From assembly GCA_934230415.1 (NCBI GenBank), contig CAKQEW010000002.1:64783-128782 (forward strand): a stretch of 64,000 nucleotides of DNA, in the 5' to 3' direction. The DNA comes from an uncultured Alphaproteobacteria bacterium (GTDB taxonomy: Bacteria > Pseudomonadota > Alphaproteobacteria > Rs-D84). Shown here piece by piece: positions 5,982-42,332 of the stretch. Within the stretch, counting starts at the first letter, position 1. Every line of letters begins with the position of its first letter. A program made the position numbers and the translations under genes. The notes beneath the pieces were generated by a model. It did not search any database. It was not told the origin of the DNA and saw only the letters and a program-made list of their open reading frames with translations.

Positions 5982-6141
5982 TTCCGCCCGTTGGGGGGAA
6001 CCCCAACAAAACCAAAAAAGTCGCGGCATGTCCGCGCAAACGCCGGCCCACCAGGGAAATTTTCCCCGGTGGGCGCAAAGGCGTAAAAAGAGTTTGAAAT
6101 AGTTTCGTTTGCAAAACGCACAAAAAAAAGGATTGATACCC

Positions 6142-9100
6142 ATGGCAGTTATCCAGAAATTTAGAAAATCTTTTGGAAAAAGTTTTTTGCAAACTCCGCT
6201 TCCTGATCTGGTTGAAATTCAATATAATTCATACAAAGATTTCTTGCAGGCTGATGTAGATCCGCAGAACCGCAAAAATATTGGTCTGCAAAACGTATTT
6301 TCGTCTATGTTCCCAATCAAGGACTATGCCGGCATCGCCGACCTGGAATTTGTTGAATACACACTGGACAAGCCGGTTTATAATGTAAAAGAATGCATGC
6401 TGCGCAATATGACATATTCCAGCAAGCTGAGATTGAAGCTGAGATTGATTTTGTGGGACATCGCCGAAGACGGTAAAAAAACTTTGCGCGATATCAAAGA
6501 ACAAGAAATATTTATGGGCGAAGTGCCGTTGATGACAGAACGCGGCAGCTTTATCGCATCGGGCGTTGAACGTGTTATTGTTTCCCAGATGCATCGTGCC
6601 CAGGGTGTTGTTTTTGCAACAACCAAAGAAGCCAAGATTGCGGGCAACCCAATCACATATACCGCGCGTATTATCCCAGAACACGGCAGCTGGATTGACT
6701 TTGAAGAATCCAAGGGTGTCATCTATGTTCGTATTGACCGCCGTCGCAAGGTTCCAGCGACCGTATTGTTGCGTTGCCTGCCGGCCGCCGAAGACGAAAA
6801 GAAATTCGCCGCCGATCCGCGCAAACCGACAATCCGCGGGATGAGTGACACGGAAATCCTGGCCAGTTTCTATTCACACATTCCATTGAAATTCAATGGT
6901 AAAATGTGGGTGGGCGATGTTGCATCGTTCGCGGGTCTGGATAAATACCGTTTGAATTACGATTTAATTAATCCAAAAGATAAAAAAGTACTGGCGGCCA
7001 AGGGTGACCGCTTGAACGCAAAACGTATGGCGAAAATCACGGCCAGCACCAAAGAATTCGGTATTTTGCCGGAATCACTGGTTGGTGAATATCTGTTTGA
7101 ACCGATTATGTCTGGGGACGAAACGGTATTCCAGGCCGGTACAGAAATCACAGACGAAGTTTTGTCTGATTTGGATAAAATGGGTATCAAGGAAATTTCC
7201 TTGATTGCGATTGACAACACAACGGTCAGTGCACACATGCGCAACACGCTGATGGCGGACAAGACCACAAATCGCGAAGAAGCCCTGATTGAAATCTATA
7301 ACATCATCCGTCCGGGTGAACGTCCAACACTGGAAGCGGCGATTAACTTGTTCCTGCGCCAGGGCTTTGATGCGGCGTTCTATGACCTGTCGGCGGTTGG
7401 TCGTTTCAAGATGAACAAGCGTTTGAAAATTGATTCTGGCAAAAAACCAGAAGATGAACGCGTTCTGACGAAATCTGATTTCTTGGCGGTGTTGAAAACA
7501 CTGACAAACATCATTGACCACAAAGACACAGTTGATGATATTGATAACCTGTCAAATCGTCGTGTCCGCGCGGTTGGTGAATTGCTGGAACAGAATTTCC
7601 GCACCGGTATGGTTCGTATTGAACGTCTGGTTCGCGAAAGCCTGTCATCGCCAAACATTGCAAATATGCAGCCCCAGGATGTCATCAATGTAAAACCGTT
7701 GATGTCACTGGTGTCTGAATTCTTGGGTACGTCCCAGTTGTCCCAGTTTATGGATGCGTATAACCCGCTGTCTGAACTGGAACACAAACGTCGTATTTCT
7801 GCGTTGGGTCCGGGGGGCTTGAACCGTGACCGTGCCGGCATTGACGTCCGCGACGTTCACCCAACACACTATGGTCGTCTGTGCCCAATTCATACACCCG
7901 AAGGTGCGAATATTGGTCTGATTAACCACATGGCGACATATGCACGTGTTAACCCATATGGATTTATTGAAACCCCATACTATGTTGTTGAAAACGGCCG
8001 CGTTACAGATAAAATGGTTTACCTGACCGCGGACGAAGAACTGGGACACAAGATTGCCCAGGGTAATACCCCAACAACAAAAGATGGCACATTGGCCGAA
8101 GAAACCGTGACGGCACGTGTTGACGGCGAATTTACCATGGTTCCAAAATCTGAAATTGACCTGATTGACGTGGCCCCACGCCAGGTGGTGTCCATCGCAA
8201 CTGGATTGATTCCGTTCGTTGAAAACGACGACGCGAACCGTGCGTTGATGGGTTCAAACATGCAGCGCCAGGCGGTTCCATTGTTGCGCGTCCAGGCCCC
8301 ATTGGTTGGTACCGGTATTGAACGCGAAGTGGCACGCGATTCCCGCACGGGCAAGGTTGCAAAGCACAGTGGTATCGTTGAATCTGTGGATGCAAACCGT
8401 ATTGTGGTTAAATGTATGAACAGCCGCAACGTTGTAACCGGTGTTGATATTTACAACCTGGAAAAATTTGACCGCAGCAACAGTGAAACATTGATTCACC
8501 AGAAACCGTTGGTCAAGGTTGGCGACCGTATTTCTGCGGGCGACATCATTGCGGACGGTTCATCAATGAACTATGGTGAATTGGCACTGGGACGTAACGT
8601 TCTGGTCGCATTTGTGCCATGGCGTGGTTATAACTATGAAGACGCGATTGTGATTTCCGAACGTATTTCACGCCAGGATATATTCACATCTGTTAAAATC
8701 GTTGAAAAAGAATTCAAGGTTCGTGATACCCAGTTGGGTCCAGAAAGTCTGACCCGTGATATTCCAAATGTCAGCGAGGAAGCACTGAAAAACCTGGACG
8801 AATCCGGTATCATTTACGTTGGTGCACGTGTGAAGCAGGGCGACATCTTGGTCGGTCGTGTTTCGCCAAAATCTGAAACGTTATTGACCCCCGAAGAAGC
8901 GTTGCTGCGTAACATCTTTGGTGAAAAGGCATTGAACGTCAAAGATACGTCACTGCGCGTTGGGCCGAACGAAGAAGGTACAGTTATCGGTGTGAACGTC
9001 TTGACCCGTCATGGGGTAAAGAAAGACGAACGTACCCAGATGATTGAACTGCAAAAAATTGAACAGATTAACAAAGACCGCGATGAAGAAACATCTATCA

Positions 9101-10278
9101 TTGAAAAGGGCTTTGCAGACCAGGTATTCCAAATTGCCGAAGGCGAAACAATTGATGCCGGCACAGGCAGCCTGAAACCATTCGTGGGCAAGAAATTGAC
9201 CGCCGAAGTGTTTGATGGCATTAAACCGGCCGATATCAAGAAACTGGTTGTGCGTAACAAAGAAGCCCAGGCCAAGATTGATGAATTGCGTGAACAGCAT
9301 ATTGCGAAATTAAAGGCATTGAACGAAAAAGCCGATGCCGAAGTGTCCAAGGCGACAGAAAGCAATTCGCTGAACGCGGGTGTTCTGAAAGAAGTCAAAG
9401 TGTATATCGCCCACAAGATGAAGTTACAGCCGGGTGATAAAATGGCGGGTCGTCACGGGAACAAGGGTATTGTATCCAAGGTTGTTCCAATTGAAGACAT
9501 GCCATACATGGAAGACGGAACCCCAGTTGACATCGTTCTGAACCCGTTGGGTGTGCCATCGCGTATGAACATTGGTCAGATTCTGGAAACCCACTTGGGT
9601 ATGGCGGGACGCGCCCTGGGCCAGCAAATTGGTGATGTGTTGGAAGAAGTCAAGGCGAAACGCGCCGTGACAGACGACCTGCGCGCCATCATGGGCAAGG
9701 TTTATGGCAAAGAAACCGCTGAAAAACTGGAAAAGATGACGGATACCGATGTCCGCGCCGAAGCGGCACTGTTGCGTGATGGTGTTCCAATGGCAACCCC
9801 GACATTTGACGGTGCCACACCAGAGGACATTCGCAGCATGCTGAAATTGGCGAATTTGCCAGAATCCGGTCAGTTCACGATGTACGATGGTATGACGGGT
9901 GAAAAATTTGCACGTCCGGTCACCGTTGGTGTTATGTACATGATGAAACTGCATCACTTTGTTGATGAGAAGATTCACGCGCGTTCAATCGGCAATTATT
10001 CGTTGGTAACACAACAGCCATTGTCCGGTAAGGCGCACATGGGTGGCCAGCGTTTGGGTGAAATGGAAGTGTGGGCATTGGAAGCACACGGTGCGGCACA
10101 CTTGCTGCGCGAAATGCTGACTGTCAAGTCTGACGATATCGTCGGCCGTAACAAGATGTACGAAGCCATCATATCCGGCAGCAACGATATCCAGACCGGC
10201 ACACCAGAAGCATTCAACGTGTTCGTTCGCGAATTGCGTGGTTTGGGTCTGGCGATGACACCAAAGAAGATTGACTAA
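6142..10278 (+). CDS. rpoB: DNA-directed RNA polymerase subunit beta
   Basis: Open frame from 6109. The start is chosen at the ATG at 6142 (MAVIQKF...), which has an AAGGA about 9 nt upstream. About 1378 aa with all RpoB conserved blocks. Confidence 0.97.
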   Translation: MAVIQKFRKSFGKSFLQTPLPDLVEIQYNSYKDFLQADVDPQNRKNIGLQNVFSSMFPIKDYAGIADLEFVEYTLDKPVYNVKECMLRNMTYSSKLRLKLRLILWDIAEDGKKTLRDIKEQEIFMGEVPLMTERGSFIASGVERVIVSQMHRAQGVVFATTKEAKIAGNPITYTARIIPEHGSWIDFEESKGVIYVRIDRRRKVPATVLLRCLPAAEDEKKFAADPRKPTIRGMSDTEILASFYSHIPLKFNGKMWVGDVASFAGLDKYRLNYDLINPKDKKVLAAKGDRLNAKRMAKITASTKEFGILPESLVGEYLFEPIMSGDETVFQAGTEITDEVLSDLDKMGIKEISLIAIDNTTVSAHMRNTLMADKTTNREEALIEIYNIIRPGERPTLEAAINLFLRQGFDAAFYDLSAVGRFKMNKRLKIDSGKKPEDERVLTKSDFLAVLKTLTNIIDHKDTVDDIDNLSNRRVRAVGELLEQNFRTGMVRIERLVRESLSSPNIANMQPQDVINVKPLMSLVSEFLGTSQLSQFMDAYNPLSELEHKRRISALGPGGLNRDRAGIDVRDVHPTHYGRLCPIHTPEGANIGLINHMATYARVNPYGFIETPYYVVENGRVTDKMVYLTADEELGHKIAQGNTPTTKDGTLAEETVTARVDGEFTMVPKSEIDLIDVAPRQVVSIATGLIPFVENDDANRALMGSNMQRQAVPLLRVQAPLVGTGIEREVARDSRTGKVAKHSGIVESVDANRIVVKCMNSRNVVTGVDIYNLEKFDRSNSETLIHQKPLVKVGDRISAGDIIADGSSMNYGELALGRNVLVAFVPWRGYNYEDAIVISERISRQDIFTSVKIVEKEFKVRDTQLGPESLTRDIPNVSEEALKNLDESGIIYVGARVKQGDILVGRVSPKSETLLTPEEALLRNIFGEKALNVKDTSLRVGPNEEGTVIGVNVLTRHGVKKDERTQMIELQKIEQINKDRDEETSIIEKGFADQVFQIAEGETIDAGTGSLKPFVGKKLTAEVFDGIKPADIKKLVVRNKEAQAKIDELREQHIAKLKALNEKADAEVSKATESNSLNAGVLKEVKVYIAHKMKLQPGDKMAGRHGNKGIVSKVVPIEDMPYMEDGTPVDIVLNPLGVPSRMNIGQILETHLGMAGRALGQQIGDVLEEVKAKRAVTDDLRAIMGKVYGKETAEKLEKMTDTDVRAEAALLRDGVPMATPTFDGATPEDIRSMLKLANLPESGQFTMYDGMTGEKFARPVTVGVMYMMKLHHFVDEKIHARSIGNYSLVTQQPLSGKAHMGGQRLGEMEVWALEAHGAAHLLREMLTVKSDDIVGRNKMYEAIISGSNDIQTGTPEAFNVFVRELRGLGLAMTPKKID

Positions 10279-10352
10279 AAATCCAGCCGTGGCGGCGTAA
10301 CCGCCGTCATGGCAAAAGCATTTTGAACAGCGACTTGAAAGGAGCAAAATTT

Positions 10353-13300
10353 ATGACCAATATGTTGCAGAAGATTTTCGGACAAATTGAAACCAAGGAA
10401 CAGTTTGACGCCCTGCGCATCACCATCGCGTCCCCAGAAGAAATTCTGTCCTGGTCCCATGGCGAGGTAAAAAAGCCCGAAACTATCAACTATCATTCTT
10501 TGAAACCAGAAGCAGAAGGCTTGTTCTGCCAGCAAATTTTTGGTCCGGTCAAAGATTACGAATGCGCATGCGGAAAATATAAAAGAATCAAATTCCGTGG
10601 CGTTGTTTGCGAACGTTGCGGGGTTGAAGTTGGTTCTTCATCTGTCCGCCGCGAACGCATGGGACACATTAAATTGGCGATGCCTGTGGCGCACACATGG
10701 TTCCTGCGCGAAGGCAAAATTGCCACATTGTTAAACAATCTGCCCCAGAAAAAATTGGAACAGGTTATCTCGTATGATGCATATATCGTTATTGAACCAG
10801 GTTTAACCAACCTGAAACAGTACGATGTCATCAGCGAAGATGAATACCAGAACGCCGTTGAAGAATTCGGTCCAGACGCATTCCGCGTTGGTATCGGTGC
10901 CGAAGGCGTACGCAGCATCATCGCAAACCTGGACATGGGCGATGAACGTACACGTTTGCGCGCAGAATTGGCGGAAACCAAATCAGAAGCCAAACGCAAG
11001 GGGCTGATCAAGCAGTTAAAATTGGTAGAAGCATTTTTGGATTCCAAAACAGACCCAGCGTGGATGTTGCCGGATATTATCCCGGTTATCCCACCAGATA
11101 TGCGTCCATTGGTAACATTGGATGCGGGCCATGTTGCGGCATCTGACCTGAACGATTTGTATCGTCGTGTTATTATCCGTAATAACCGTCTGAAACGTTT
11201 CCAGGAAATGCATGCACCTGAAATTATCGTCCGCAACGAAAAACGTATGTTACAGGAAGCGGTTGATTCTTTGTTTGATAACGGGCACAAGGCACGTCCA
11301 ATGGTTTCCCAGAACCGCCGTCCGCTGAAATCACTGTCTGATTCACTGCGCGGTAAATCTGGTCGTTTCCGTATGAACATGTTGGGTAAACGTGTGGATT
11401 ATTCCGGTCGTTCGGTAATTGTGTCTGGGCCATCCCTGAAATTGCACCAGGTTGGTTTGCCCAAGACAATGGCACTGGAATTGTTTAAACCATTCGTTTA
11501 TGCACGACTGTTGGCGGGTGATTACGCAAATACATTAAAGACCGCGCGTAAAATGGTTGAAAACGGTGAAGACATCGTTTGGGAAATCCTGGAAAAGGTT
11601 ATTTACCAGCATCCTGTTCTGTTGAACCGTGCGCCATCATTGCACCGTCTGTCGTTGCTGGCATTTGAACCAGTATTAATTGAAGGCAAGGCAATCCGTC
11701 TGCACCCATTGGTTTGCAAGGGATTCAATGCTGACTTTGATGGTGACCAGATGTCTGTACACGTTCCAATTTCACTGGAAGCACAATTGGAAGCGCGCAC
11801 ATTGATGCTGTCGTCTAATAACGTTTTGTCACCTGCAAATGGTGAACCAATGATTGTTCCGGCCCAGGACATGGTGTTGGGTGTATATTATATCTCGCTG
11901 ATTGATGGCGAACACACCGAAAAATCACCACGTTTTGCCAATATGGACGAAGTGAAAATGGCGTTGGAAAATCATTCCATCACATTGCACACACCAATCG
12001 TTGCACGTATTAATGGCAAGATTTACAAAACAACCGCCGGTCGTATGATTTTGGGCGAATTGTTGCCGAAATCTGACAAAATGCCGTTTGACCTGGTGAA
12101 CAAGGTTATGCCGGTTAAAGAAATCAAGGCACTGTTGGCGACAACGTATGAACGTTGCGGCGACAAGGCAATGATTATGTTGGCAGATAACCTGAAAAAC
12201 ACCGGTTTTGAACAGGCAGCGCGCAGTGGTATTTCCATTGGGTTTGATGATATTATCATCCCAGAAGAAAAGAAAACCATGATTGCGGATGCTGAAAAAG
12301 CGGCCGAAGAAATTGAAACACAGTATCAGAACGGTTTGCTGTCTGGTGGTGAACGTCACAACAAACTGATTGACCTGTGGCAGAAAACAACCGATAAATT
12401 GGGTGATTTGGCATACGCCGCATTGGGCAAAACCAGTGGTGAAAACTGGAACTCTGTTCTGATGATGGCTCTGTCTGGGGCGCGTGGTTCCAAACGTCAG
12501 ATTCAGCAGTTGGCCGGTATGCGTGGTATGATGCAGAAGCCAGACGGTTCCATTATTGAAGTTCCAATTATTTCCAACTTTAAGGAAGGTCTGACCATGT
12601 CTGAATACTTTACGTCCACACACGGTGCGCGTAAGGGTATGTCGGATACCGCGTTGAAAACCGCGTCTGCTGGTTACCTGACCCGTCGTTTGGTTGAATT
12701 GTCCCAAAATACAGTTATTACCGAACACGATTGCGGCACCACAGAATACATCACAGCGAAACCTGTGTACCAGGGTTCAACCCTGTCGGTTGCGCTGGGC
12801 GATGTTGTATTGGGTCGTACCGCGGCACATGATATCGTTCACCCGATTACCAAGGAAGTTATCGTTCCGGCCGGTGAACTGATTACCAAGACCGCTGCAA
12901 AACAGATTAATGAATCAGGTCTGCCATCTGTTGATGTGCGCAGTGTTTTGACATGCAGCAGTGATGGTTTGTGCGCAAAATGCTATGGTATGGATTTGTC
13001 GCGTAATGCGCTGGTTCATGTTGGCGAAGCGGTCGGTGTTATCGCTGGCCAGTCCATTGGTGAACCTGGTACCCAGTTGACCCTGCGTACGTTCCACATT
13101 GGTGGTGTTGCCGAAGGTAGTGCAGAAAACCATTTCATAGAGGTTCCAGTTGCAGGTACAATTAAACTGATTGGTGCCAACACGATTAAGAATACAGCGG
13201 GTCGCGTTGTGGTATTGTCGCGTAATGCCGAGGTTGCAGTTCTGGATGCCAAGGGCGAAACCCTGTTCTCGTGCGCGTTGCCATATGCATCTATGCTGAT

Positions 13301-14462
13301 TGTCAACGATGGTGACACCGTTGAAAAGGGTGCCAAGGTTGCAGAATGGGATCCATATTCAAACACAATTATCGCCGAAAAAGACGGTATCGTCAGCTTC
13401 AGCGACCTGGTTGAAAACGTATCGTACCAGGAAGAAGTGGATTCTATGACCGGTATCGTTTCGCGCAAGGTTATTAACTGGAAGGCGAACACGAAAAAGG
13501 CGTTACAGCCAGCCATCCGTTTGGTTGATGCAAACGGCAACGTGATTTCGTTGGGCGGTAAAAAGATTGCAGAATATATGTTGCCGATGTATTCGGTACT
13601 GAACGTTGCAAATGGTTCAACCGTTGTGGCGGGCGATGTTCTGGCGCGTATCCCGGTCCAGGCAAAGAAGACAGGCGATATTACCGGCGGTCTGCCACGT
13701 GTAGAAGAATTGTTGGAAGTGCGTCGTCCTGCAAACCCAGCGTTGCTGGCGGAAATTGACGGTACGGTTGAATTAGAAGATGCAAAATCTAAAATCATCA
13801 TCCGTATTGATCCCGAAGATGGCACAGCCCCAGTTGAATACGCGGTACCAAAGGGTACAAACCTGATGGTGCGCAGTGGTGATGTCGTGCGCAAGGCCGA
13901 TAAACTGGTTGATGGCGATCCGGTTCCACAGGATATCTTGCGTATCTTGGGCCAGAAAGCGTTGGCAACATTTATGGTTGAACAGATTCAGCAGGTTTAC
14001 CGCTTGCAGGGTGTGGTCATCAACGACAAGCACATTGAAATTCTGATACGTGAAATGACACGCCGCGTGGAAATTACGAACCCGGGCGATACCGGATTCC
14101 TGATGGGCCAGGTTGTTGACCGCGTTGACTTTGAAGAAGAAAACGCCCGCGTTGCACACGATGGTGGCAAAGTGGCCGAAGCATCCCAGGTCTTGGTCGG
14201 TTTGACACGTGCATCGTTAACATCACGTTCGTTTATCTCTAATGCATCGTTCCAGCAGACAACCAAGGTATTGGTTGACGCGGCAATCAGCGGTGCGACA
14301 GATAAACTGGTCGGTATCAATGAAAACCTGATTGTTGGTCGCCTGATTCCAATCGGCACGGGTGCATATGTACGTCGCGTGCGCGAAATCGCCAAGGCCG
14401 AAGAACGCGAAGAACGTTTGGCCCGCGAAGGCAATACCCAGCAGCAGTTGTTGGATATCTAA
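10353..14462 (+). CDS. rpoC: DNA-directed RNA polymerase subunit beta-prime
   Basis: Open frame from 10323. The start is chosen at the ATG at 10353 (MTNMLQKIFGQ...), after a GGAG RBS. Contains a zinc-binding CxC...CxxC region and the NADFDGD catalytic motif. Confidence 0.97.
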   Translation: MTNMLQKIFGQIETKEQFDALRITIASPEEILSWSHGEVKKPETINYHSLKPEAEGLFCQQIFGPVKDYECACGKYKRIKFRGVVCERCGVEVGSSSVRRERMGHIKLAMPVAHTWFLREGKIATLLNNLPQKKLEQVISYDAYIVIEPGLTNLKQYDVISEDEYQNAVEEFGPDAFRVGIGAEGVRSIIANLDMGDERTRLRAELAETKSEAKRKGLIKQLKLVEAFLDSKTDPAWMLPDIIPVIPPDMRPLVTLDAGHVAASDLNDLYRRVIIRNNRLKRFQEMHAPEIIVRNEKRMLQEAVDSLFDNGHKARPMVSQNRRPLKSLSDSLRGKSGRFRMNMLGKRVDYSGRSVIVSGPSLKLHQVGLPKTMALELFKPFVYARLLAGDYANTLKTARKMVENGEDIVWEILEKVIYQHPVLLNRAPSLHRLSLLAFEPVLIEGKAIRLHPLVCKGFNADFDGDQMSVHVPISLEAQLEARTLMLSSNNVLSPANGEPMIVPAQDMVLGVYYISLIDGEHTEKSPRFANMDEVKMALENHSITLHTPIVARINGKIYKTTAGRMILGELLPKSDKMPFDLVNKVMPVKEIKALLATTYERCGDKAMIMLADNLKNTGFEQAARSGISIGFDDIIIPEEKKTMIADAEKAAEEIETQYQNGLLSGGERHNKLIDLWQKTTDKLGDLAYAALGKTSGENWNSVLMMALSGARGSKRQIQQLAGMRGMMQKPDGSIIEVPIISNFKEGLTMSEYFTSTHGARKGMSDTALKTASAGYLTRRLVELSQNTVITEHDCGTTEYITAKPVYQGSTLSVALGDVVLGRTAAHDIVHPITKEVIVPAGELITKTAAKQINESGLPSVDVRSVLTCSSDGLCAKCYGMDLSRNALVHVGEAVGVIAGQSIGEPGTQLTLRTFHIGGVAEGSAENHFIEVPVAGTIKLIGANTIKNTAGRVVVLSRNAEVAVLDAKGETLFSCALPYASMLIVNDGDTVEKGAKVAEWDPYSNTIIAEKDGIVSFSDLVENVSYQEEVDSMTGIVSRKVINWKANTKKALQPAIRLVDANGNVISLGGKKIAEYMLPMYSVLNVANGSTVVAGDVLARIPVQAKKTGDITGGLPRVEELLEVRRPANPALLAEIDGTVELEDAKSKIIIRIDPEDGTAPVEYAVPKGTNLMVRSGDVVRKADKLVDGDPVPQDILRILGQKALATFMVEQIQQVYRLQGVVINDKHIEILIREMTRRVEITNPGDTGFLMGQVVDRVDFEEENARVAHDGGKVAEASQVLVGLTRASLTSRSFISNASFQQTTKVLVDAAISGATDKLVGINENLIVGRLIPIGTGAYVRRVREIAKAEEREERLAREGNTQQQLLDI

Positions 14463-32014: not shown

Positions 32015-32464
32015 GCATACAAATAACTTGCAAAATACAATGTGAAAATGTATCATAGCAGATGAATCTTATGGGAATAAGGTTCGGGATCTTCAAAAAT
32101 CCTGATGTACCGCGGTGCAAAGAAAATGTTGCGCCGTAATCCGCACAATAATGCGGCGCGATTGCGCCATTTATTGTGTTCAGACCCCGTCAATTTGGTC
32201 GGGGGGCCGCCAGCGTATACCACAGGGGGAACCCAAAGACTGGCGGGGTCATTTGGTACAATGATTTTTGAACCTCCCGGCCACCATTTTATTGGTGGTT
32301 TTCTTTTTCCTGTAATTTTCATTTGTTGTATGGGCGGAATCGGGTTATCGCAAGAAATCCGAAAACTGTAAGATTTATATGATCTGTCGGTTGTTTGAAC
32401 AATTCCGCCCACCCATAGGAAAAAGGTGCATTATGCCAAAACGTTTTGTTTTTGCGCAACTTTA

Positions 32465-32488
32465 CCCCCCCTCCCCCCCCACACACAC
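32465..32488 (+). repeat. Simple-sequence tract C7-T-C8 followed by (AC)4, about 115 bp upstream of the next gene start
   Basis: Read directly: ttaCCCCCCCTCCCCCCCCACACACACggg. Confidence 0.95.
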
Positions 32489-32601
32489 GGGACGTTTGCG
32501 TGACTGCATAAATGCGGTTCTGGTGCGTACTTTTTCAAATTTTGAATTTGTCCCATTGTGTAAAACAAATTGGAAATAAAAATAAGTCAGGAGAAAAAAG
32601 T

Positions 32602-34125
32602 ATGAAAATTATTATCCAAGCGGGTGGTATGGGTACCAGAATGCAGGCGTTAACGCATGTAAAGCCAAAGGTTTTGGTCACGGCGAAATATATGCCGATT
32701 ATTTTCCATATGTTCAAGAAGTATCCAAAGGATGAATTTATCATTATTGGCGACTATAAATTTGACGTGTTGGACCGTTATTTGGCCACGTTTGCCAAGG
32801 ATGTTAATTACATTTTGTTAAAGGCCGATAAAAAGGGTAATGCCGCCGGCATCAAGGAAGCCGTTGCGTGTGTTCCTGATGGCGAACCGTTTATGATTGT
32901 GTGGTCTGACATCATTTTATCCGAAGCGTTCAATGTTAATGAAATTCCGCATGGGTGCCAGGTCGGCGTTGTTGATTTCCCATGTTCATGGAGTATCAAG
33001 GACAATAAACTGGTTCATGAAGCGATACCTGGAATGGGCGTTGGTGGCCTGTATGTATTTGATGACAAATCGTGGTTTGATGATTTCCCAGGCGAAGGTT
33101 CGTTTACAACGTGGTTGGCGAACAAGGATATTCCATTGCACCCAATATCATTGATGGGCAGTATTGATGTCGGCACATTGGAGGCATACAAACGCCTGTC
33201 GTCAACGGCAAATCGTTGTCGGCCATATAATAAGATTGAATTTATTGATGGGCGTGTTGTAAAAACAGGCCTGACCCCGGATGCGGTTAAATTGATTCAG
33301 CGTGAAATTGAATGGTATGAAAAAATCAGCAGCTATGGTTTCCATGCCATCCCAAAGATTTATTCAACTAATCCATTAACAATGGAAATTATCAAGGGAA
33401 AAAATATTTTCTTGGCCGATTTGGATAAAGACGGAAAACGCGAAACAATCCATAAAATTGTTGACGCATTGGCAACAATGCATGGATATGAAACGGCGCC
33501 GGCGTCTGCGTGGGATTTGTATACGGAATATTTTAAAAAGACCATACATCGCCTGGAATCAATCATGTTTGCGATTCCGTTCGCGTTTGATGAAACAATC
33601 AACATCAATGGTACAACGTGCAAAAACGTGCTGTATCATCCGCATTTGTTGCGTGCGGCGGTATTGGACACACTGATGCATACGCATTACGGGCCAATTC
33701 ATGGCGATTGCCAATTAACAAACACGATGATTGATGAATCTGGGCGTGTGTTCTTTATTGATGCACGTGGTTATTTCGGCAAGAGCAAAATCTTGGGCGA
33801 TGTCAGATACGACTGGGCCAAGGTGTACTATGCAATTTCCGGTAATTTTGATCAATTTAACGTCAAGAATTTTGACTTTGATGTGCAACCAGACGGTGTG
33901 AATTTCCAGATTCACAGTGGTGGTTGGGAAGATTTGACAGAATATTTCCTGGATATGATTCCGCGCAGCGAGGCAAATATCAAAGAAATTAAACTGATTC
34001 ATGCGATTATATGGTTGTCGCTGGCATCGCACGCATGGGAAGATTTTGATTCCATGTGTATTGCGTTCTATAACGGAACATTGTTGTTTAACCAGTGGTT
34101 GGCGGAGTATGGCAATGACAAATAA
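32602..34125 (+). CDS. Bifunctional sugar/alcohol-phosphate nucleotidyltransferase (LicC/MurU-like) plus aminoglycoside-phosphotransferase-fold kinase (LicA/AmgK-like)
   Basis: Start at the ATG at 32602 after AGGAG. The N-terminal IIQAGGMGTRM is the NTP-transferase G-loop. The C-terminal HGDCQLTNTMIDESGRVFFIDARG is the APH/choline-kinase Brenner and DFG-like motifs. Confidence 0.6.
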   Translation: MKIIIQAGGMGTRMQALTHVKPKVLVTAKYMPIIFHMFKKYPKDEFIIIGDYKFDVLDRYLATFAKDVNYILLKADKKGNAAGIKEAVACVPDGEPFMIVWSDIILSEAFNVNEIPHGCQVGVVDFPCSWSIKDNKLVHEAIPGMGVGGLYVFDDKSWFDDFPGEGSFTTWLANKDIPLHPISLMGSIDVGTLEAYKRLSSTANRCRPYNKIEFIDGRVVKTGLTPDAVKLIQREIEWYEKISSYGFHAIPKIYSTNPLTMEIIKGKNIFLADLDKDGKRETIHKIVDALATMHGYETAPASAWDLYTEYFKKTIHRLESIMFAIPFAFDETININGTTCKNVLYHPHLLRAAVLDTLMHTHYGPIHGDCQLTNTMIDESGRVFFIDARGYFGKSKILGDVRYDWAKVYYAISGNFDQFNVKNFDFDVQPDGVNFQIHSGGWEDLTEYFLDMIPRSEANIKEIKLIHAIIWLSLASHAWEDFDSMCIAFYNGTLLFNQWLAEYGNDK

Positions 34126-34510
34126 AGAATTACGCATTTCGCCACTGAACCATACATGGATTCTGGATTTTGATGGGACATTGGTTCGTCATAATGGGTA
34201 CAAGGATGGCATTACAAATACGGATGCCTGGTTGCCGGGGGCATTGGATTTCTTGAAATCAATACCGGCGGGGGATTATGTACTGATATTGACCGCCCGC
34301 GAAGATGAACCAGACGTTCGCCGCCGCACCATTGATTTTATTCGCGCGGCCGGTGTCCGTTTTGATGATATTAAATTCGGCATGCCGATGGGTGAACGCA
34401 TTTTGATAAATGACAACAAACCATCTGGCCTGGTGTGTTCGCATGCGATTACGCCCGATCGCAACCAGGGGCTGGAAACATTTAACGTAATCATTGATAA
34501 CGATTTATAA
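34109..34510 (+). CDS. HAD-family phosphatase (small)
   Basis: LDFDGTLV motif at the N-terminus. The internal start MAMTNKEL is preferred. It overlaps the upstream gene by 17 nt. Confidence 0.5.
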   Translation: MAMTNKELRISPLNHTWILDFDGTLVRHNGYKDGITNTDAWLPGALDFLKSIPAGDYVLILTAREDEPDVRRRTIDFIRAAGVRFDDIKFGMPMGERILINDNKPSGLVCSHAITPDRNQGLETFNVIIDNDL

Positions 34511-34528
34511 AAACACAGGGGGAAACAC

Positions 34529-35422
34529 ATGCAAGTCTTGAAACCAATCGTTCACGAAACAATATGGGGGGGAAATAAATTAACCCCGTATTCTGGTACC
34601 GATTGTCAGAAAATCGGTCATCTGTATTCTGCAATTGATACAGAACAATTTTGTAATGAAATTATCACAGGTCCGGACAGTGGTAAAAATCTGCACCAAT
34701 GGTTTATGGAAAATCGCGCGAAATATGGCTTGGAAAAATACGATGAATTGCCAATCTTAATGGCCCTGGTGGAAGCAGACGATAACTTGTCTATTCAGGT
34801 TCACCCAGACGACAAAATGGCCCAAGAACTGGAACACAAATCGTTCGGCAAAAACGAATCTTTCTATACATTGGTTGCACCAACATGTGGCAAAATGTAT
34901 AACGGGTGCAGGGCGGCGTCTGTGGCAGAAATGCAACAAAAGATTGCCGCAGGCAAAATTGATGAAACATTGGATATGATGCCGTGCGCCGCCGGTGATT
35001 ACACATACATTGTTGGTGGCACATTGCACGCGGCGACCGCTGGGTCATTGCACTTTGAAATTGAAGAAAACAGTGAATACACATATCGCTTCTATGATTT
35101 TGATCGCGTTGATAAAAACGGCAACAAACGCCCATTGCAGTTGGACAAGGCGTTGGCGTGCCTGGACGTGTCAAAGAAATCTGTCGCCCGCAAATACGGC
35201 CCAGAACCAATTGTGGAACGTATGTATTCAACCCAATTAATCACCAACAGTGATACATTTACCAATACCGGTGATATGTTCGCGTTTGCGGTTATGCTGC
35301 GTGGGGATAAAACAATTGACGGTGCACACGTCATGCCGGGAACGGCGATTTTGATGGAACCTGGCGAAACGCTGGATACAACAAATGCCGAATTTATAAT
35401 CGCAAAACCACGCCGGGGATAA
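34529..35422 (+). CDS. Type I phosphomannose-isomerase-like cupin
   Basis: WGG (ETIWGGNKL), LSIQVHPDD and ESFYTL blocks, typical of class I PMI. Confidence 0.5.
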   Translation: MQVLKPIVHETIWGGNKLTPYSGTDCQKIGHLYSAIDTEQFCNEIITGPDSGKNLHQWFMENRAKYGLEKYDELPILMALVEADDNLSIQVHPDDKMAQELEHKSFGKNESFYTLVAPTCGKMYNGCRAASVAEMQQKIAAGKIDETLDMMPCAAGDYTYIVGGTLHAATAGSLHFEIEENSEYTYRFYDFDRVDKNGNKRPLQLDKALACLDVSKKSVARKYGPEPIVERMYSTQLITNSDTFTNTGDMFAFAVMLRGDKTIDGAHVMPGTAILMEPGETLDTTNAEFIIAKPRRG

Positions 35423-35423
35423 T

Positions 35424-36086
35424 TTGATGTCTGAAATAAAATTATGTCCGTCATTAATGTGTGCAGATTTCGGCAATTTCGCGACCGAGGTTTCCGCCAT
35501 GGATGCCGCCGGTGTGTCTGAATATCATATGGATATTATGGACGGTGAATTTGTGCCGAACTTTGCACTGTCATGGGCGGATTTTGCAGCGATACGTAAA
35601 ATGACCAAAACACCGATGGATGTACACCTGATGGTGAAAAATCCGGGTGTTCATTTGCCATATGCATTGCGATATGGTGCGGATATTATTTATGTCCATT
35701 GGGAATCCGGCAACGCCGAAACGTATTTGCGTGAAATTCGCAAAAATGGTCGCCTGGCAGGATTGGCGATTAACCCCAGTACCACAGTTGACGATGTGCG
35801 TGGGGTTCTGCCACTGGTGGACACATTGATGGTTATGCGTGTCAATCCGGGCTTTGCCGGCCAGACGGCGATTCCTGCGGTTGATGATAAAATCACAGAA
35901 TTGGTATCCATGCCGAACCGTACATTTGGTATAAAACTGGATGGCTGTGTTGGCCCCGATGTGATAACGCATTGGTCGTCGCGTGGTGTTGATTCATTTG
36001 TATGCGGTACCGCATGTGGTATGTTTGGCGCGAAACGCCGCAACCGCACATACCAGGAAATTGTTAACGAATTAAGACAAAGGTAA
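35424..36086 (+). CDS. Ribulose-phosphate 3-epimerase family protein (pentose/hexulose-phosphate epimerase)
   Basis: SLMCADF, HMDIMDGEFVPN, DVHLMV and VNPGFAGQ motifs. Confidence 0.7.
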   Translation: MMSEIKLCPSLMCADFGNFATEVSAMDAAGVSEYHMDIMDGEFVPNFALSWADFAAIRKMTKTPMDVHLMVKNPGVHLPYALRYGADIIYVHWESGNAETYLREIRKNGRLAGLAINPSTTVDDVRGVLPLVDTLMVMRVNPGFAGQTAIPAVDDKITELVSMPNRTFGIKLDGCVGPDVITHWSSRGVDSFVCGTACGMFGAKRRNRTYQEIVNELRQR

Positions 36087-36094
36087 TATACGTT

Positions 36095-37229
36095 ATGCGA
36101 AATTTTCTTGTGCGTTTTATCTGTTGTTTCGTCCCCAGCCGCCGTCCCAGACATGCCATACGACAGCATATGACATTGGTGCGTGGTATCACCCCATATA
36201 GGCCAAAACGGGACACTTTTGTAATTTTTTCATATCCACGTGCAATTCACCATCCAACAACAACGGATGTTTGTGTAAATATGGGCGATTATGTCCAGTC
36301 TGTGGCCACGAAATCATTATTGAATCAGTTGTTTCATACGGCAAAATTCCAGACCTTGGATCGTGATAATTTAATCGGTTTTCAGCCGTGTGAACGGGTA
36401 TCGTACATTACTGTGTACCAGGGATTTTTCCCGGCTGATATTGGATGGACACCGACACAGTTTATATTCCCTGTTTTTGTGGGCTTTCATCTGGGGGGGG
36501 GGAATGGAGTATAATCAACAAGATAACGGCAGTGAAATCGTGTTTCAGCGTTTTTGTGCCGCGAATCCAGACTATTTCAATCACAGGTCGGTCGGATGTC
36601 GCGATTTACGAACAACTGGATTTTGCAAAAAGTTGGGATTGAATGCGTATTTTTCCAGATGTTTAACACTGACATTGCCATTACGTAAAACCGGCCCCAG
36701 ACAAACCCAGGTTTTTATATCAGTATTCCCGCAAATTTATGATATTGTGGTGCAGCAGTGTCGTGAACACGGCATTGTTAATTTTGAAACACACAGTGCA
36801 GTAGTCAGCCTGGAAAAATATCGGACAGATGATTATAAATCCGTGGCCCAACACGATTTTATGCCTGATTGCGAACAATATCTGGCGACATTTCGGGACA
36901 ATGCCCGATTGGTAATAACAGACAGAATCCATGTTGCGGCACCGTGTATTGCAATGGGCATACCGGTAATTGTTATTAAACGTGCCGAAAACGACCCCAG
37001 ATATGATATCTTTAATGGGATTATTAAATGCTATTCAGAACAGGAATTAAGAAGTGGAAAAATAGATTTCAATGTGTCTGCGGTTGATATTGAACCATTA
37101 AAAGCCTTGATGCGTGAAAATCTGAAATTGACAATAATGGGCGAGGTATACGGTGAACATGTATCTAAATCACGTCTGCGCCATATCAGAAATCAAATCG
37201 CCAATTTCACAGTGACAGAGGAGGAGTAA
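36095..37229 (+). pseudogene. Polysaccharide pyruvyl-transferase-like gene interrupted by a frameshift at a G10 tract (likely phase-variable, currently OFF)
   Basis: The ORFs 36095..36514 (…NMGDYVQSVA…HLGGGNGV*) and 36390..37229 (…GGGMEYNQQ…DRIHVAAPCIAMGIPVIVIK…) are in different frames and meet exactly at the G10 run. Nine Gs would fuse them into one protein of about 375 aa with the family's N-terminal NxGD and C-terminal R-H…G-P-I-I motifs. Confidence 0.45.
36493..36502 (+). repeat. Homopolymeric G10 tract inside the coding sequence
   Basis: Read directly: catctGGGGGGGGGGaatgg. Confidence 0.95.
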
Positions 37230-37250
37230 AAGTGAACAAAAATAAATACT

Positions 37251-39545
37251 GTGCAGGGGGGGGGGATGAGATACTACTTTGAAGACGCCAGGGCTTTTTA
37301 TAATAACGTTGAAAAACTGTGCAAAAAAAATGCATATAACCTGGTGTTGCATAAACATCTGGGCGATATTTTTTATGCGATTGCAGCCAAGCCATTTTTT
37401 GAGACGCAATACAAAGCCCCACTGCATTTTATTATTCGTCCACAACACGAATTTTTGATGAAAATGTTAGGCGTTAAAAATTATGCTGTATATGATATTG
37501 ATGCACTGGTCAAAAAAAATACAGATTTCAAAGAATTGTATTTTAATGGTGCGCACCACGATCACTTTGCCGATGACAGAATTGAAAATGAAATGTTCCA
37601 GGCATTGTTTCCGTGTATTCCCGCCAACAAGGGTGTGCCATTTGTTTGCGAAAATTTGATAAACAACTTCTTTACGTATGACGATTATTGGGCATACAGA
37701 TGGTCCAGTAATATGGGTTTGGACACAAATTTCCGTTTTCTGTTGCCACAACATAAACTTGATTTGTCGGATGCGGCCAGGCGAAAAATCAGTAAAATTG
37801 CACCGTTGGATAAAATTGTCTTGATTGCACCCGAAGCTGCCACTTTCCCGGAATTTGGCCCGGAATTTTGGAATATTATTGCCGATGTGGTACATGCACA
37901 TGGGTATACAATTATCGTGAACAGTAAAAAATTCAAAATCAATCATGGCGTGTCTGCGTTTGATATGGGATTAAGTTTGTCGGACGTTGTGGCACTGGGG
38001 CTGAATTGTGCATATGTATTTTCATTGCGTTCGGGGTTGTGTGATGTGTTGGTTGGATGTGGCAAACGGTTGTATGCATTTTATCCGGCCCAGGGTCGGC
38101 GCGAATTACATTCGTTGACTGTTCCGTTTGTTCAGCAAACAGGTGTACATGAAATACAAATTGGAAATTGGAAAATCGATTCTGTTGTATGGGATGGGGT
38201 TGATTTAACAAAAGCATTACAGAAATATGTATCGGGATTGTACCGCAATTATATATTGGAAACAATGCGTCGTGCGTTATCGTTCGGACATCACAAGGCT
38301 GTGCATACGTTCCGGCGGAATTTGGCGCGTGATCTGGCGGGTGTGTCCAGGCTGTTTCCTGAAAATAATATCCAGAATCCAGTACTTGGGACAGATACGA
38401 ATTTGGCACCGATTTACAACAAGAAAACAAAAAACATTGCAAATGTAACCGTTCAGAAAGAATCTGTGTTGGGTGGGCTAATAACGTTCAAGCGGGATTC
38501 GCATGGTGTCCAGATATTGCGCGTCTGTGGCATAGTTGTGTACAGTAAAAAGAACAAAAACGGGGTCAGAATATCACGCATGTTCAGTATCCCGTTCCAC
38601 AGAAAAAATCTGAGACAAGAAATGTTGGCCAAAATCACACGTGATATTGGTAATGATGTTGATGATATATATATTATGCGTCACAATATTGGTGAAACCT
38701 ATGTGTTTCTGACACATCTGAAAAATTGGATAAAACGTAATGGGTCGGTGCATCCTGTGGTTCTGGTGTGGCGTGAAAAAGACATCCCATTATATGAAAT
38801 GTTTTTGCCAAAGAATATTGGCATGCATTATGTTCCGATTACCACGATAGAATTAAGTGATACATTGGGGGATGAAGTATTTGAATATAATGGTCATCGT
38901 ATATTTTGTCCAACGCCGGTTGATATTGTACAGTATATGTTAAAGCAACGGGAATCAGGGGATCCGAACCTGACATTCTATACGTATATATGTAAATATT
39001 TTTTGTTAGATTCGCCTGATAAACTGGCGCGTCCAATTGTGCCACAATCGGTTCGTGATGATGTGCGTGCACGTATTGCAACATATTTTCGTCGTCCATT
39101 TGTGGTAATTATGCCAAATGCAAATTCGTTGGGGCTGATGCCGGTTGAATTCTGGAACAAGATAATTCATGAAATGGATGTGCGTGGTTACGATGTTTTT
39201 GTGAACATGCATCACGCTAGCAATGTACATGAAACAGGATTGAATTTGTCCAGTGCAATCATGTTTGATTGCAATATCGCGGAAATATACGAACTGGCGC
39301 GTAATGCCGCGGGCATTATAACGTTGGCATCGGGATTGGCGGTACTGATGACGGCCACTAATACCCAGATGGATTTAATTTACACCGATTGCAAATATAA
39401 TGTTAAAGCTGACACAATGCAGGCACTGTATTCTGTGTACAGTTTGCCTGGTGTGAACCCAAAACGGGTTCGGGAATATGATGCAAATATACAATCCCCA
39501 GATGCGTTGGCGGATTTAATATTATCCCGTTATCCACAGCAGTAA
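37251..39545 (+). CDS. Large glycosyltransferase-like protein with internal tandem duplication (two LGD-motif, GT9 heptosyltransferase-like halves)
   Basis: 764 aa. Residues about 20-60 (LVLHKHLGDIFYAIAAKPFFETQYKAPLHFII) and about 450-500 (IYIMRHNIGETYVFLTHLKNWIKRNGSVHPVVLVW) repeat the GT9-type N-terminal pattern. The start lies inside a G9 tract (GTG-CAG-GGG-GGG-GGG-ATG). Confidence 0.4.
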   Translation: MQGGGMRYYFEDARAFYNNVEKLCKKNAYNLVLHKHLGDIFYAIAAKPFFETQYKAPLHFIIRPQHEFLMKMLGVKNYAVYDIDALVKKNTDFKELYFNGAHHDHFADDRIENEMFQALFPCIPANKGVPFVCENLINNFFTYDDYWAYRWSSNMGLDTNFRFLLPQHKLDLSDAARRKISKIAPLDKIVLIAPEAATFPEFGPEFWNIIADVVHAHGYTIIVNSKKFKINHGVSAFDMGLSLSDVVALGLNCAYVFSLRSGLCDVLVGCGKRLYAFYPAQGRRELHSLTVPFVQQTGVHEIQIGNWKIDSVVWDGVDLTKALQKYVSGLYRNYILETMRRALSFGHHKAVHTFRRNLARDLAGVSRLFPENNIQNPVLGTDTNLAPIYNKKTKNIANVTVQKESVLGGLITFKRDSHGVQILRVCGIVVYSKKNKNGVRISRMFSIPFHRKNLRQEMLAKITRDIGNDVDDIYIMRHNIGETYVFLTHLKNWIKRNGSVHPVVLVWREKDIPLYEMFLPKNIGMHYVPITTIELSDTLGDEVFEYNGHRIFCPTPVDIVQYMLKQRESGDPNLTFYTYICKYFLLDSPDKLARPIVPQSVRDDVRARIATYFRRPFVVIMPNANSLGLMPVEFWNKIIHEMDVRGYDVFVNMHHASNVHETGLNLSSAIMFDCNIAEIYELARNAAGIITLASGLAVLMTATNTQMDLIYTDCKYNVKADTMQALYSVYSLPGVNPKRVREYDANIQSPDALADLILSRYPQQ
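37256..37264 (+). repeat. Homopolymeric G9 tract spanning the translation start region
   Basis: Read directly: gtgcaGGGGGGGGGatgagatac. Confidence 0.95.
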
Positions 39546-39551
39546 AATTTG

Positions 39552-39580
39552 CCCGCGTTGTAATTTCAACGCGGGTTTTT
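39552..39580. terminator. Bidirectional terminator between convergent genes (CCCGCGTTGTAATTTCAACGCGGGTTTTT)
   Basis: 9-bp stem with a T run on the + side and an A/T-rich flank on the - side. Confidence 0.7.
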
Positions 39581-39586
39581 GTTGTA

Positions 39587-40123
39587 CTATGCGGCCATGC
39601 CCGCCACGTGCCAATGCACCCATCGCGCGCGCGATGCCGAACTGGCATACAGTGTTTCGGTCTGGATAAATATACCATTTTGCGTTTTGCCGGTTTGGTT
39701 ATCTGTGTTGTCCGAATTTATACCACCAATACATGTTAATATCGTTGATACCCCATCCAGGCCATATGATGTACCGGTTGCGGTGTACATACTGGTTGCC
39801 ATCTTGATGGGGAAACTGACGCTGACCCCCGCCCAACGATTGGTGGTGGTGGCAATTTTTGCAATTCCCCCTTGTTCAACCCAGCCGCTTTTGTATTTGC
39901 GATACCAGGTATAGTTGTTGTCTGCGGTGGGCGTTTGCCATGCGATGACGTAATCAATCGCGTCCAGTGCACTTTGTCGCGCCAACATTGTGCCGCCGGG
40001 GGTCGTGCCGTCGTGCACGCGAATGGTTTTGTTCGTGGTATCAACCGTGATTTCGCCTTCGGCCCCGGTAAATGTTGCGTGTTCGTCGGCGGTACCACGC
40101 CGAAATTGTATCTGTCGTGACAT
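39587..40123 (-). CDS. Phage tail-fibre N-terminal-domain protein (DUF2793/hyaluronidase-like N-terminus), stand-alone
   Basis: MSRQIQFRRGTADEHATFTGAEGEITVDTTNKTIRVHDGTTPGG matches the conserved tail-fibre N-terminal pattern RRGT…GE…DT…L.IGDGxTPG. 178 aa, with no other phage genes adjacent. Confidence 0.5.
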   Translation of the reverse strand: MSRQIQFRRGTADEHATFTGAEGEITVDTTNKTIRVHDGTTPGGTMLARQSALDAIDYVIAWQTPTADNNYTWYRKYKSGWVEQGGIAKIATTTNRWAGVSVSFPIKMATSMYTATGTSYGLDGVSTILTCIGGINSDNTDNQTGKTQNGIFIQTETLYASSASRARWVHWHVAGMAA

Positions 40124-40318
40124 TTGTGTGTGTTTCCTTTGGTTCGTTGGGTTAAATCGGTCGGTTGTTGAACAAAAAAATACCGGCGCGTTTCGCGTCG
40201 GCTGATATGCGCATTATATCACAAAATATGAAAAAAATCAACAAGGCTTTTCCTGTTGGACGGTATCGCAAATATCTGATATAATTGTCGCGATATAACA
40301 ATGGGGGGAAATACAGAT

Positions 40319-41753: not shown

Positions 41754-42332
41754 ATGAAAAAGTTATCAATTCTGTCTGCGGTGTTGGGAATGACACTGTT
41801 TGGTGCGGCGTCTGCGGCCGATATTACTGTTTATTATTCACCAACATGCCCACATTGCCATCATGCGCGTGAATTCATCGGTGGCCAGATGGTATATGAA
41901 TATCCAAAATTGGTTGTCAGTGAAGTCAACGTTATGAACCCAGATATGTTGCCAAAATTCCAGGACGCATTAAAGAAGTGCGAATATGAATCTGGTGGTG
42001 TGCCGGTAATTGTTGTTGGTGAAAAATGTTTCCAGGGTTATGCGGATTTCATGCAACAGGATTTGCGTGACGCCGTAGAGGTTGACCTGACCGATGCTGA
42101 CAAGGCAACCGCGGCAGAAAACCGTGCCGAATTGGAAAAGGACGCGGATGCGTTCAAGGCTGCGCACAGTGATCGCGCCAATGCGATTTCTGAATACCAG
42201 GCGACCGCCCCAGAACAGGCCGACGAAACCGCACAAAAAAAAACTGAAAATGGCGGCAGTGGGTATTTCTATGGTCTGCTGATTGTTCTGGTTGCGGCAT
42301 TGGGATTTGTTCTGGTTCGCAAAAAGAAATAA
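41754..42332 (+). CDS. Secreted thioredoxin-fold protein with a CPHC motif and a C-terminal membrane anchor
   Basis: Signal peptide, YSPTCPHCHHAREF, an acidic linker and a C-terminal hydrophobic segment (GLLIVLVAALGFVLV). AAGGAGA RBS. Confidence 0.5.
   Translation: MKKLSILSAVLGMTLFGAASAADITVYYSPTCPHCHHAREFIGGQMVYEYPKLVVSEVNVMNPDMLPKFQDALKKCEYESGGVPVIVVGEKCFQGYADFMQQDLRDAVEVDLTDADKATAAENRAELEKDADAFKAAHSDRANAISEYQATAPEQADETAQKKTENGGSGYFYGLLIVLVAALGFVLVRKKK

Follow-up and report, generated by a model that had tools for sequence, protein, structure and literature searches.

Simple-sequence contingency loci have long been known from pathogens. In Neisseria, poly-G tracts control lgt glycosyltransferase genes (PMC2192423), and Campylobacter jejuni has a poly-G/C phasome that includes capsule and lipooligosaccharide genes (PMC6321876, PMC8437040). 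Poly-G/C runs of at least 7 bases are the accepted cut-off, and runs of at least 8 are all variable in C. jejuni 11168 (PMC6321876). Here, we consider a locus in a 64,000-nucleotide stretch of DNA (the window; positions 64,783 to 128,782 of contig CAKQEW010000002.1) from an uncultured alphaproteobacterium. The locus is a glycan-decoration island that carries a pyruvyl-transferase-like gene and a five-gene cassette: a nucleotidyltransferase-kinase fusion, a HAD-type phosphatase, a phosphomannose isomerase (PMI)-like cupin, an Rpe-like epimerase, and a double GT9-like glycosyltransferase (hereafter, the transferase). As in Neisseria lgt and C. jejuni, G/C tracts of 8 to 11 bases lie within glycan-modifying coding sequences, changes in their length shift the reading frame, and several tracts in one locus could give combinatorial glycoforms. 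Based on the assembled contigs of two strains of this species and of sister lineages, we think it credible, and probable overall, that this is a slippage-driven simple-sequence contingency locus.

Our criterion for a tract, after PMC6321876, was a homopolymeric G/C run of at least 7-8 bases in an open reading frame (ORF) or promoter. Three tracts qualify, all on the forward strand and all inside coding sequence: T1 (32465-32488), which contains C7TC8; T2 (G10, 36493-36502); and T3 (G10, 37256-37265). Within the window, G/C runs of at least 8 are confined to these three tracts in the island. Two runs of at least 10 were observed versus 0.058 expected, and two or more occurred in only 0.2% of 500 shuffled sequences. 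A first-pass annotation of this stretch had listed three tracts at these places, and all of them exist, but it read T3 as G9 instead of G10. An in-frame ATG lies directly 3' of both G10 tracts (G10-A-ATG GAG, with the A and ATG at 36503-36506, and G10-ATG AGA, with the ATG at 37266-37268). It is speculative, but in an out-of-frame state the G run might serve as a ribosome-binding site (RBS) from which translation initiates internally.

Strains of the window species were retrieved by exact-protein look-ups; contigs that share neighboring genes are shown just once, so at most two strain types can be read. Three contigs (L001, L003, and L005) are 100% identical to the window and represent the same strain, and two (L002 and L004) represent a second strain that is 99.3% identical. 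A comparison of 20.9 kb shows 136 substitutions between these strains but only three indels, two of which are inside T1 and T2. By our own arithmetic, the chance that two of three indels would fall in the roughly 45 tract bases of these 20.9 kb is about 1e-5. The remaining indel is a 6-bp tandem duplication (TGCGTC/TGCGTG) at 36179 in the second strain, in the N-terminal part of the pyruvyl-transferase-like gene. T1 is 24 nt in the window strain versus 27 nt in the second strain, and T2 is G10 versus G8C. T3 has the same total length in both strains and differs in length between lineages only. Comparing tract lengths among related strains, as the first-pass annotation had proposed, therefore shows that they are not uniform.

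The first-pass annotation had also raised the concern that the frameshift at T2 might be an error. Indeed, long homopolymers are prone to sequencing and assembly errors, which might explain the G10 frameshift and the other differences between tracts, and one contig (L004) begins inside T1 and another (L005) begins 8 nt downstream of it. (As a sign of switching, these contig breaks in or near T1 are only suggestive.) However, G10 at both T2 and T3 is identical in an ENA scaffold (L001) and a Logan contig (L003), which were produced by two different assembly pipelines and are 100% identical over 11.6 kb. The alternative alleles bear substitutions (G8C at T2 and A-to-G at T3) along with linked single-nucleotide polymorphisms, and an out-of-frame allele from a sister species, described below, is present in two assemblies. 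Error is an extremely unlikely explanation.

T2 lies in the pyruvyl-transferase-like gene (36095-37229, forward strand), at HLGG(G) codons that are conserved among orthologues as His-Leu-Gly-Gly-(Gly/Ala/Cys). As the first-pass annotation recognized, the G10 tract frameshifts this gene, and removing one G restores a single ORF (377 amino acids [aa]); adding two would also do so (378 aa). As it stands, the gene is split and currently off: one ORF has 139 aa, and the other is called as 241 aa from ATG 36504. The repaired ORF matches PS_pyruv_trans (PF04230) with 42.5 bits, above the gathering cut-off of 25.3, and has one weak sequence match in the PDB, to Pvg1 (E = 0.22). The predicted in-frame proteins of 377 and 378 aa were absent from the protein collection. 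In-frame alleles of other lengths are found, and T2 toggles between intact and truncated frames: the window strain has G10A (out of frame, 139 + 241 aa, 6 contigs), and the second strain has G8CA (in frame, 379 aa, 3 contigs). A sister species with the same cassette has G9T or G6TGGT (in frame, 384 aa) but in two assemblies has G7TGGT (out of frame, 150 + 243 aa). The out-of-frame allele is G10A in one species and G7TGGT in the other, and the off alleles therefore arose independently at the same tract. Neither species' off gene bears any lesion besides the length of T2.

T3 lies at the beginning of the transferase gene, whose start needs to be considered with care. The first-pass annotation placed the tract exactly at the start of a 764-aa gene, but that start (GTG 37251) is just the mechanical limit of the ORF. 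Gene callers choose ATG 37266, directly 3' of T3, which gives a 759-aa protein. Comparison with relatives points to an older start at GTG 37232, which places T3 inside a conserved leader ORF (37232-37282, forward strand) with an RBS (GGAGGAG) at 37220-37226. In a sister species, the transferase starts 3 bases after the stop codon of the pyruvyl-transferase gene, with ATG GAG AAA AAC AAA TAT TGT GCG (MEKNKYCA...). The window's leader begins GTG AAC AAA AAT AAA TAC TGT GCA, and three differences from the sister species (L022) are synonymous. The synonymous differences imply that the leader peptide is translated and is under purifying selection.

With G9 or G12 at T3, the leader would join the transferase ORF; with G10, it ends after 16 codons at a TGA (37280-37282). 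The alleles of T3 in different lineages are of both kinds. The tract is absent from L060, where the leader is fused straight to MRYYF (765 aa). It is in frame in L022 (G6AGGG), in L027 (G5TAGGA), and in L059 (G9, 770 aa; this contig has G9 at T2 as well). It is out of frame in the window strain (A followed by G10, with the stop at 37280-37282) and in the second strain, which has G11 through an A-to-G change, so that the total length is the same as in the window. Thus, T3 toggles across lineages between a stop after 16 codons, in the window, and a 770-aa fusion, in L059. In-frame fusions of the leader and the transferase are also seen in the proteins P0003, P0007, and P0288, and L009, which is distantly homologous, carries ATG-G9 at this same 5' end.

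Alternatively, T3 might not be an on/off switch at all: ATG 37266 would be the working start, the G tract would be its ribosome-binding region, and the transferase would be made in every state. The methionine equivalent to ATG 37266 (MRYYF) is the normal start, with its own RBS, in orthologues that lack an upstream pyruvyl-transferase gene (such as L021). Also, both strains keep the out-of-frame length with a perfectly conserved transferase ORF, and at T2, too, the G10 is immediately followed by an in-frame ATG. This account would not explain why the leader (MxKNKYCA) has a strong RBS and a sequence that is conserved through synonymous substitutions, or why in-frame fusions occur, and ATG 37266 is not preceded by a canonical GGAGG. 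A constitutive transferase is possible, but we doubt it. Between these extremes, T3 may not be strictly on or off but may alternate between translation that is strong and coupled and translation that is weak or absent.

T1 consists of C7 (32465-32471), a T, C8 (32473-32480), and (AC)4 (32481-32488). It encodes PPSPPTHT and ends 113 nt 5' of the start codon of the fusion gene (ATG 32602), so the first-pass annotation was right to place it upstream of that gene. We rejected the idea that T1 is a promoter-spacer tract: at 24 nt it is too long for a spacer, and it sits in a 48-codon ORF (32433-32579, forward strand). L062 has a 279-aa family-2 glycosyltransferase (GT2) at this site. In a BLASTP comparison to that protein, the first 42 aa of the 48-codon ORF match its N terminus with E = 1e-7, and the last 12 aa match its C terminus with E = 3e-4. 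Because both ends of the GT2 protein are matched, the ORF must be the remnant of an internally deleted gene. Its RBS and start region are conserved. In the second strain, T1 is C17(AC)5; the additional 3 nt leave the frame intact. With T1 in frame, the remnant's stop codon lies 22 nt before the first gene of the cassette; out of frame, the stop would be about 90-100 nt earlier. Through coupling or polarity, T1 might possibly influence the operon. The region of T1 has no homology to the sequence that precedes the cassette in the sister species, and predicted RNA structure at T1 and T3 was no better than for shuffled sequence.

Several observations weigh against a contingency locus. First, the variation in the tracts is known between assembled strains and lineages, and reversible switching within one population is a prediction. 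Second, just two strains of the species came to light, and they share one T3 frame; the database contains neither a 770-aa in-frame variant nor any other longer form of the transferase from the window species. Third, ATG 37266 may suffice as a start, as in L021, which would make T3 a modulator and not a switch. Fourth, T1 may be a fossil of a GT2 gene that was once phase variable. Fifth, no promoter was mapped: a search for sigma-70 promoters around T1 found nothing convincing, and promoter-like sites were no more common than in shuffled sequences. Finally, the pyruvyl-transferase-like gene seems to be under relaxed constraint. The ratio of synonymous to nonsynonymous differences between the two strains is 7:6 for this gene, as compared to 23:2 for proS and 15:1 for ldh, which flank the island. 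Together with the 6-bp indel, this fits decay equally well as it fits a gene that is often off.

Some of these observations would be expected if the tracts are mutational hot spots in an island that is being lost piecemeal, with the frameshifts at T2 and T3 being effectively permanent pseudogenization. Decay would account for the internal deletion of the GT2 gene that holds T1, for the 7:6 ratio and the indel, for the absence of the pyruvyl-transferase gene from many loci that contain the cassette, and for the failure to find an in-frame T3 allele in the window species. However, the affected ORFs have no lesion other than tract length, and the 759-aa ORF, from a 2.3-kb gene, has zero differences between the two strains. 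Pure tracts of G9 to G11 have been kept at the same codons in several lineages even though a synonymous interruption would be easy, and interrupted alleles do exist. The independent off alleles at T2 and the purifying selection on the leader also argue against decay, which we consider unlikely.

Switching of the locus would work as follows. Slipped-strand mispairing would change the lengths of three hypermutable G/C tracts within coding sequence. The length of T2 would toggle the pyruvyl-transferase ORF. The length of T3 would determine if translation from the strong RBS and GTG 37232 enters the transferase ORF or halts after 16 codons; when the leader is out of frame, the ATG directly after T3 would be the sole possible start for the 759-aa protein. 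The length of T1 varies within the GT2 remnant, which ends 22 nt before the cassette, and might affect the operon by coupling or polarity. In the window, as we read the frames, the ORF that holds T1 is in frame, the pyruvyl-transferase is off, and the transferase is uncoupled from its leader. The first-pass annotation's proposal that slippage-prone tracts switch glycan-decoration genes is supported by the differing lengths in strains and species and by the in-frame and out-of-frame alleles at T2 and T3. The combinatorial variation that it expected from three tracts is possible in principle (eight states), but just two strains of the species have been seen.

The gene content of the cassette is as originally described, apart from its chemistry. 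All five genes are on the forward strand, and profile searches confirmed both halves of the fusion, the type I PMI, and the Rpe family; for the phosphatase, the match is weak. The first gene (32602-34125) encodes a 507-aa fusion of an N-terminal nucleotidyltransferase of the sugar-1-phosphate type to a C-terminal kinase with the APH fold. It is followed by a small HAD-type phosphatase (131 aa, 34115-34510), which we assigned from a weak hit to the NCBIfam BT0820 HAD model (E = 1e-3), a DxDxT motif (ILDFDGTL), and synteny. The third gene (297 aa, 34529-35422) encodes a type I PMI-like cupin (Pfam PMI_typeI_cat; similar to the mannose-6-phosphate isomerase of B. subtilis, PDB 1qwr, E = 3e-31). 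A G7 run at 34566-34572 in this gene encodes Trp-Gly-Gly and is the same in both strains. The fourth gene (219 aa, 35427-36086) encodes a ketose-phosphate 3-epimerase of the Rpe/AlsE family (Pfam Ribul_P_3_epim, E = 4e-47; Rpe, PDB 1tqj, E = 1e-36; AlsE, PDB 3ct7, E = 3e-34). Downstream of the pyruvyl-transferase-like gene is the transferase (759 aa, 37266-39545), which has two GT9-like modules in tandem. It has the GT-B fold, its nearest solved structures belong to family GT9, and it resembles WaaF, WaaC, and TibC. The window's transferase does not match the Pfam model for GT9 (PF01075) at E = 0.01, but 10 of 32 relatives do, with a best E value of 1.6e-6.

The first-pass annotation viewed the fusion as LicC/LicA-type, which would imply that phosphocholine, or some other phospho-alcohol, is what the locus adds to glycans. 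The analogy stands only at the level of the folds. However, MurU is the top structural match for the nucleotidyltransferase domain, and MurU, GMPPB, and HddC score as well as LicC or better; in a profile search, glucose-1-phosphate cytidylyltransferase, HddC, and mannose-1-phosphate guanylyltransferase rank above LicC. The domain is not a MurU at the equivalog level, as it scores 27.3 bits against the NCBIfam model NF045761 (cut-off 250). Furthermore, family searches of the island's proteins found no match to the LicB permease or the LicD transferase. Instead, the fusion's invariant partners in about 30 loci are the PMI-like isomerase, the Rpe-like epimerase, the HAD phosphatase, and the transferase with the GT9 fold. 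Decoration with phosphocholine or the like is very unlikely.

Because LicB and LicD are missing and the partners are conserved sugar-phosphate enzymes and a GT9-like transferase, a pathway from a ketose phosphate to a nucleoside diphosphate sugar (NDP-sugar), with its transferase, is indicated. From these family assignments, the product that the cassette makes and transfers is most likely a rare NDP-sugar and not phosphocholine; a heptose or a rare hexose is possible. The Rpe/AlsE-like epimerase and the PMI-like isomerase would convert a ketose phosphate to an unusual aldose phosphate. The APH-fold kinase and the HAD phosphatase would then yield the sugar-1-phosphate, and the fused nucleotidyltransferase would activate it to the NDP-sugar. 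The two-module GT9-like enzyme would transfer the sugar to a cell-envelope glycan, which the accessory pyruvyl-transferase-like enzyme might modify further.

The cassette is mobile and is not limited to this lineage. Gut and rumen metagenome-assembled genomes (MAGs) contain about 30 loci that keep its gene order (fusion, HAD, PMI, RPE, double GT9); their labels are Proteobacteria, Sutterella, Oxalobacter, Mailhella, Akkermansia, and Elusimicrobiota, and a Butyrivibrio has a fusion protein that is 53% identical. A search of the literature found no paper that describes the cassette. A paper on the capsule of Akkermansia (PMC13343947) concerns invertons at a different locus. Tentatively, the five genes might be an undescribed rare-NDP-sugar pathway, shared across phyla, that is a non-orthologous analogue of the nucleotide-heptose pathway and that gained stochastic control several times independently, by G/C tracts in this lineage and in MAGs labelled as Akkermansia and by an invertase with an invertible segment in sister lineages.

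Switch-like elements also accompany the cassette in other lineages. In two sister alphaproteobacterial lineages (L022, 7286-7409, and L053, 2376-2514), a 186-aa DNA-invertase-like gene precedes the cassette. Upstream of that gene, inverted repeats of 22-29 nt flank an 80-nt segment whose orientation in L022 is opposite to that in L053. This segment is a candidate inverton that would control the cassette. In MAGs labelled as Akkermansia, the cassette contains a membrane-acyltransferase-like gene (assigned by eye, without a family search) between the PMI-like and Rpe-like genes. This gene has a tract in its middle: C9 in L017 (1818-1826, out of frame), C9 in L019 (1033-1041, in frame), and C17 in L015 (8-24). 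Because the cassette is repeatedly found beside switch-like elements, we suggest that variable expression of the decoration has been selected for.

The island itself (about 32080-40160) was acquired horizontally between proS and ldh, whose identities we confirmed; the window is chromosomal. In contigs from sister species (L061 and L062), homology to the backbone stops at about 32075-32080 and returns at about 40163-40257. The GC content of the island is 38-45%, as compared to 47-50% in its flanks. In sister species whose ProS is 97% identical (L061-L068), the proS-ldh site contains other glycosyltransferase cargo: either a GT1 and a Caps_synth-like glycosyltransferase or two GT2-type genes and a hexapeptide acetyltransferase. 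The break in homology, the lower GC content, and the alternative cargo imply that about 8 kb was acquired. The proS-ldh junction is therefore a hot spot for glycan genes, and the tracts are within the acquired island. We found no G/C tracts in the alternative glycosyltransferase cargo of the sister species; a split gene in L065 is due to an ordinary insertion (C2 to C3) that does not involve a tract. Between the two strains of the window species, there are 0-4 substitutions per kb at 32500-35500 and at 37500-39500 versus 14-21 per kb in the flanks. The near-absence of substitutions in the cassette suggests a recent transfer or sweep between the strains.

An intrinsic-terminator-like hairpin (39551-39576, forward strand; 7 of the 10 bp in its stem are GC pairs, and a run of T follows) marks the end of the operon. 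Beyond it, on the reverse strand, is a gene for a 178-aa tail-fibre-like protein (39587-40123; Pfam Mtd_N, E = 4e-16, and a PHROG tail protein). Over its C-terminal 140 aa, it shares 59% identity with a protein encoded at the same position beside the cassette in L021. The N terminus is Mtd_N in the window and resembles the T7 tail fibre in other lineages. Given the shared C terminus and the different N termini, a tail-fibre-like gene with swapped heads travels alongside the cassette. As to a phage origin, we searched viral contigs and found no homologue of the transferase.

Elsewhere in the window, an A9 run (42235-42243) lies in a glutaredoxin-like gene, with A10 at the same place in the sister species. 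Two long ORFs at 6109-14462 look like rpoB and rpoC, although these labels did not come from a search. An Rfam scan of the window found only tRNAs. The nearest named relatives of ProS (87% identity) are from MAGs labelled as Alphaproteobacteria. The identical and near-identical contigs are derived from metagenome assemblies, and the contigs of the sister species are mostly labelled as gut or Hadza.

Most work on phase variation in gut commensals has dealt with DNA inversion. From this locus, it appears that slippage-based contingency genes also operate in uncultured alphaproteobacteria from gut metagenomes, and many of the related contigs are from Hadza-labelled samples. It also draws attention to a widespread and uncharacterized cassette for sugar activation. 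Turning its product on and off is evidently worthwhile, and the probable reason is that the product is seen by phages or by host immunity.

How does this locus differ from the described systems that it resembles? Relative to Neisseria lgt and C. jejuni, it belongs to an uncultured gut commensal alphaproteobacterium, it involves different enzyme families (pyruvyl-transferase-like and double GT9-like), and one of its tracts is in a short leader with an alternative start directly after it. The phase-variable surface glycans of other gut commensals, such as Akkermansia cps1 (PMC13343947), whose surface polysaccharide varies by means of an invertible promoter, and those controlled by the invertons of Bacteroides, are similar in outcome, but the window lineage has simple-sequence tracts instead of an invertase or inverted repeats. 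In lic1 (LicA-LicD of Haemophilus influenzae and Streptococcus), repeats mediate the phase variation of a surface decoration, and the kinase and nucleotidyltransferase have the same folds as ours. However, the island lacks LicB, LicD, and a tetranucleotide repeat, and it has sugar-phosphate enzymes and a GT9-fold transferase instead, so the activated group is probably a sugar.

On the biochemical side, the cassette parallels the nucleotide-heptose route (GmhA, HldE or HddA/HddC, GmhB, and WaaC/WaaF), which has an isomerase, a bifunctional kinase/nucleotidyltransferase, a HAD phosphatase, and GT9-fold transferases; the cassette's nucleotidyltransferase domain also resembles HddC. However, a non-orthologous family performs each step: the canonical route uses a SIS isomerase and a ribokinase or GHMP kinase, and the cassette has a PMI cupin and an APH-fold kinase in their places, with an additional Rpe/AlsE-like 3-epimerase. 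AmgK and MurU are likewise a pair of an APH-fold kinase and a MurU-like nucleotidyltransferase, but here the two are fused in one protein, and the context is glycan synthesis and not cell wall recycling. Overall, the locus adds to a well-known class of contingency loci, and the cassette itself is its most novel part.

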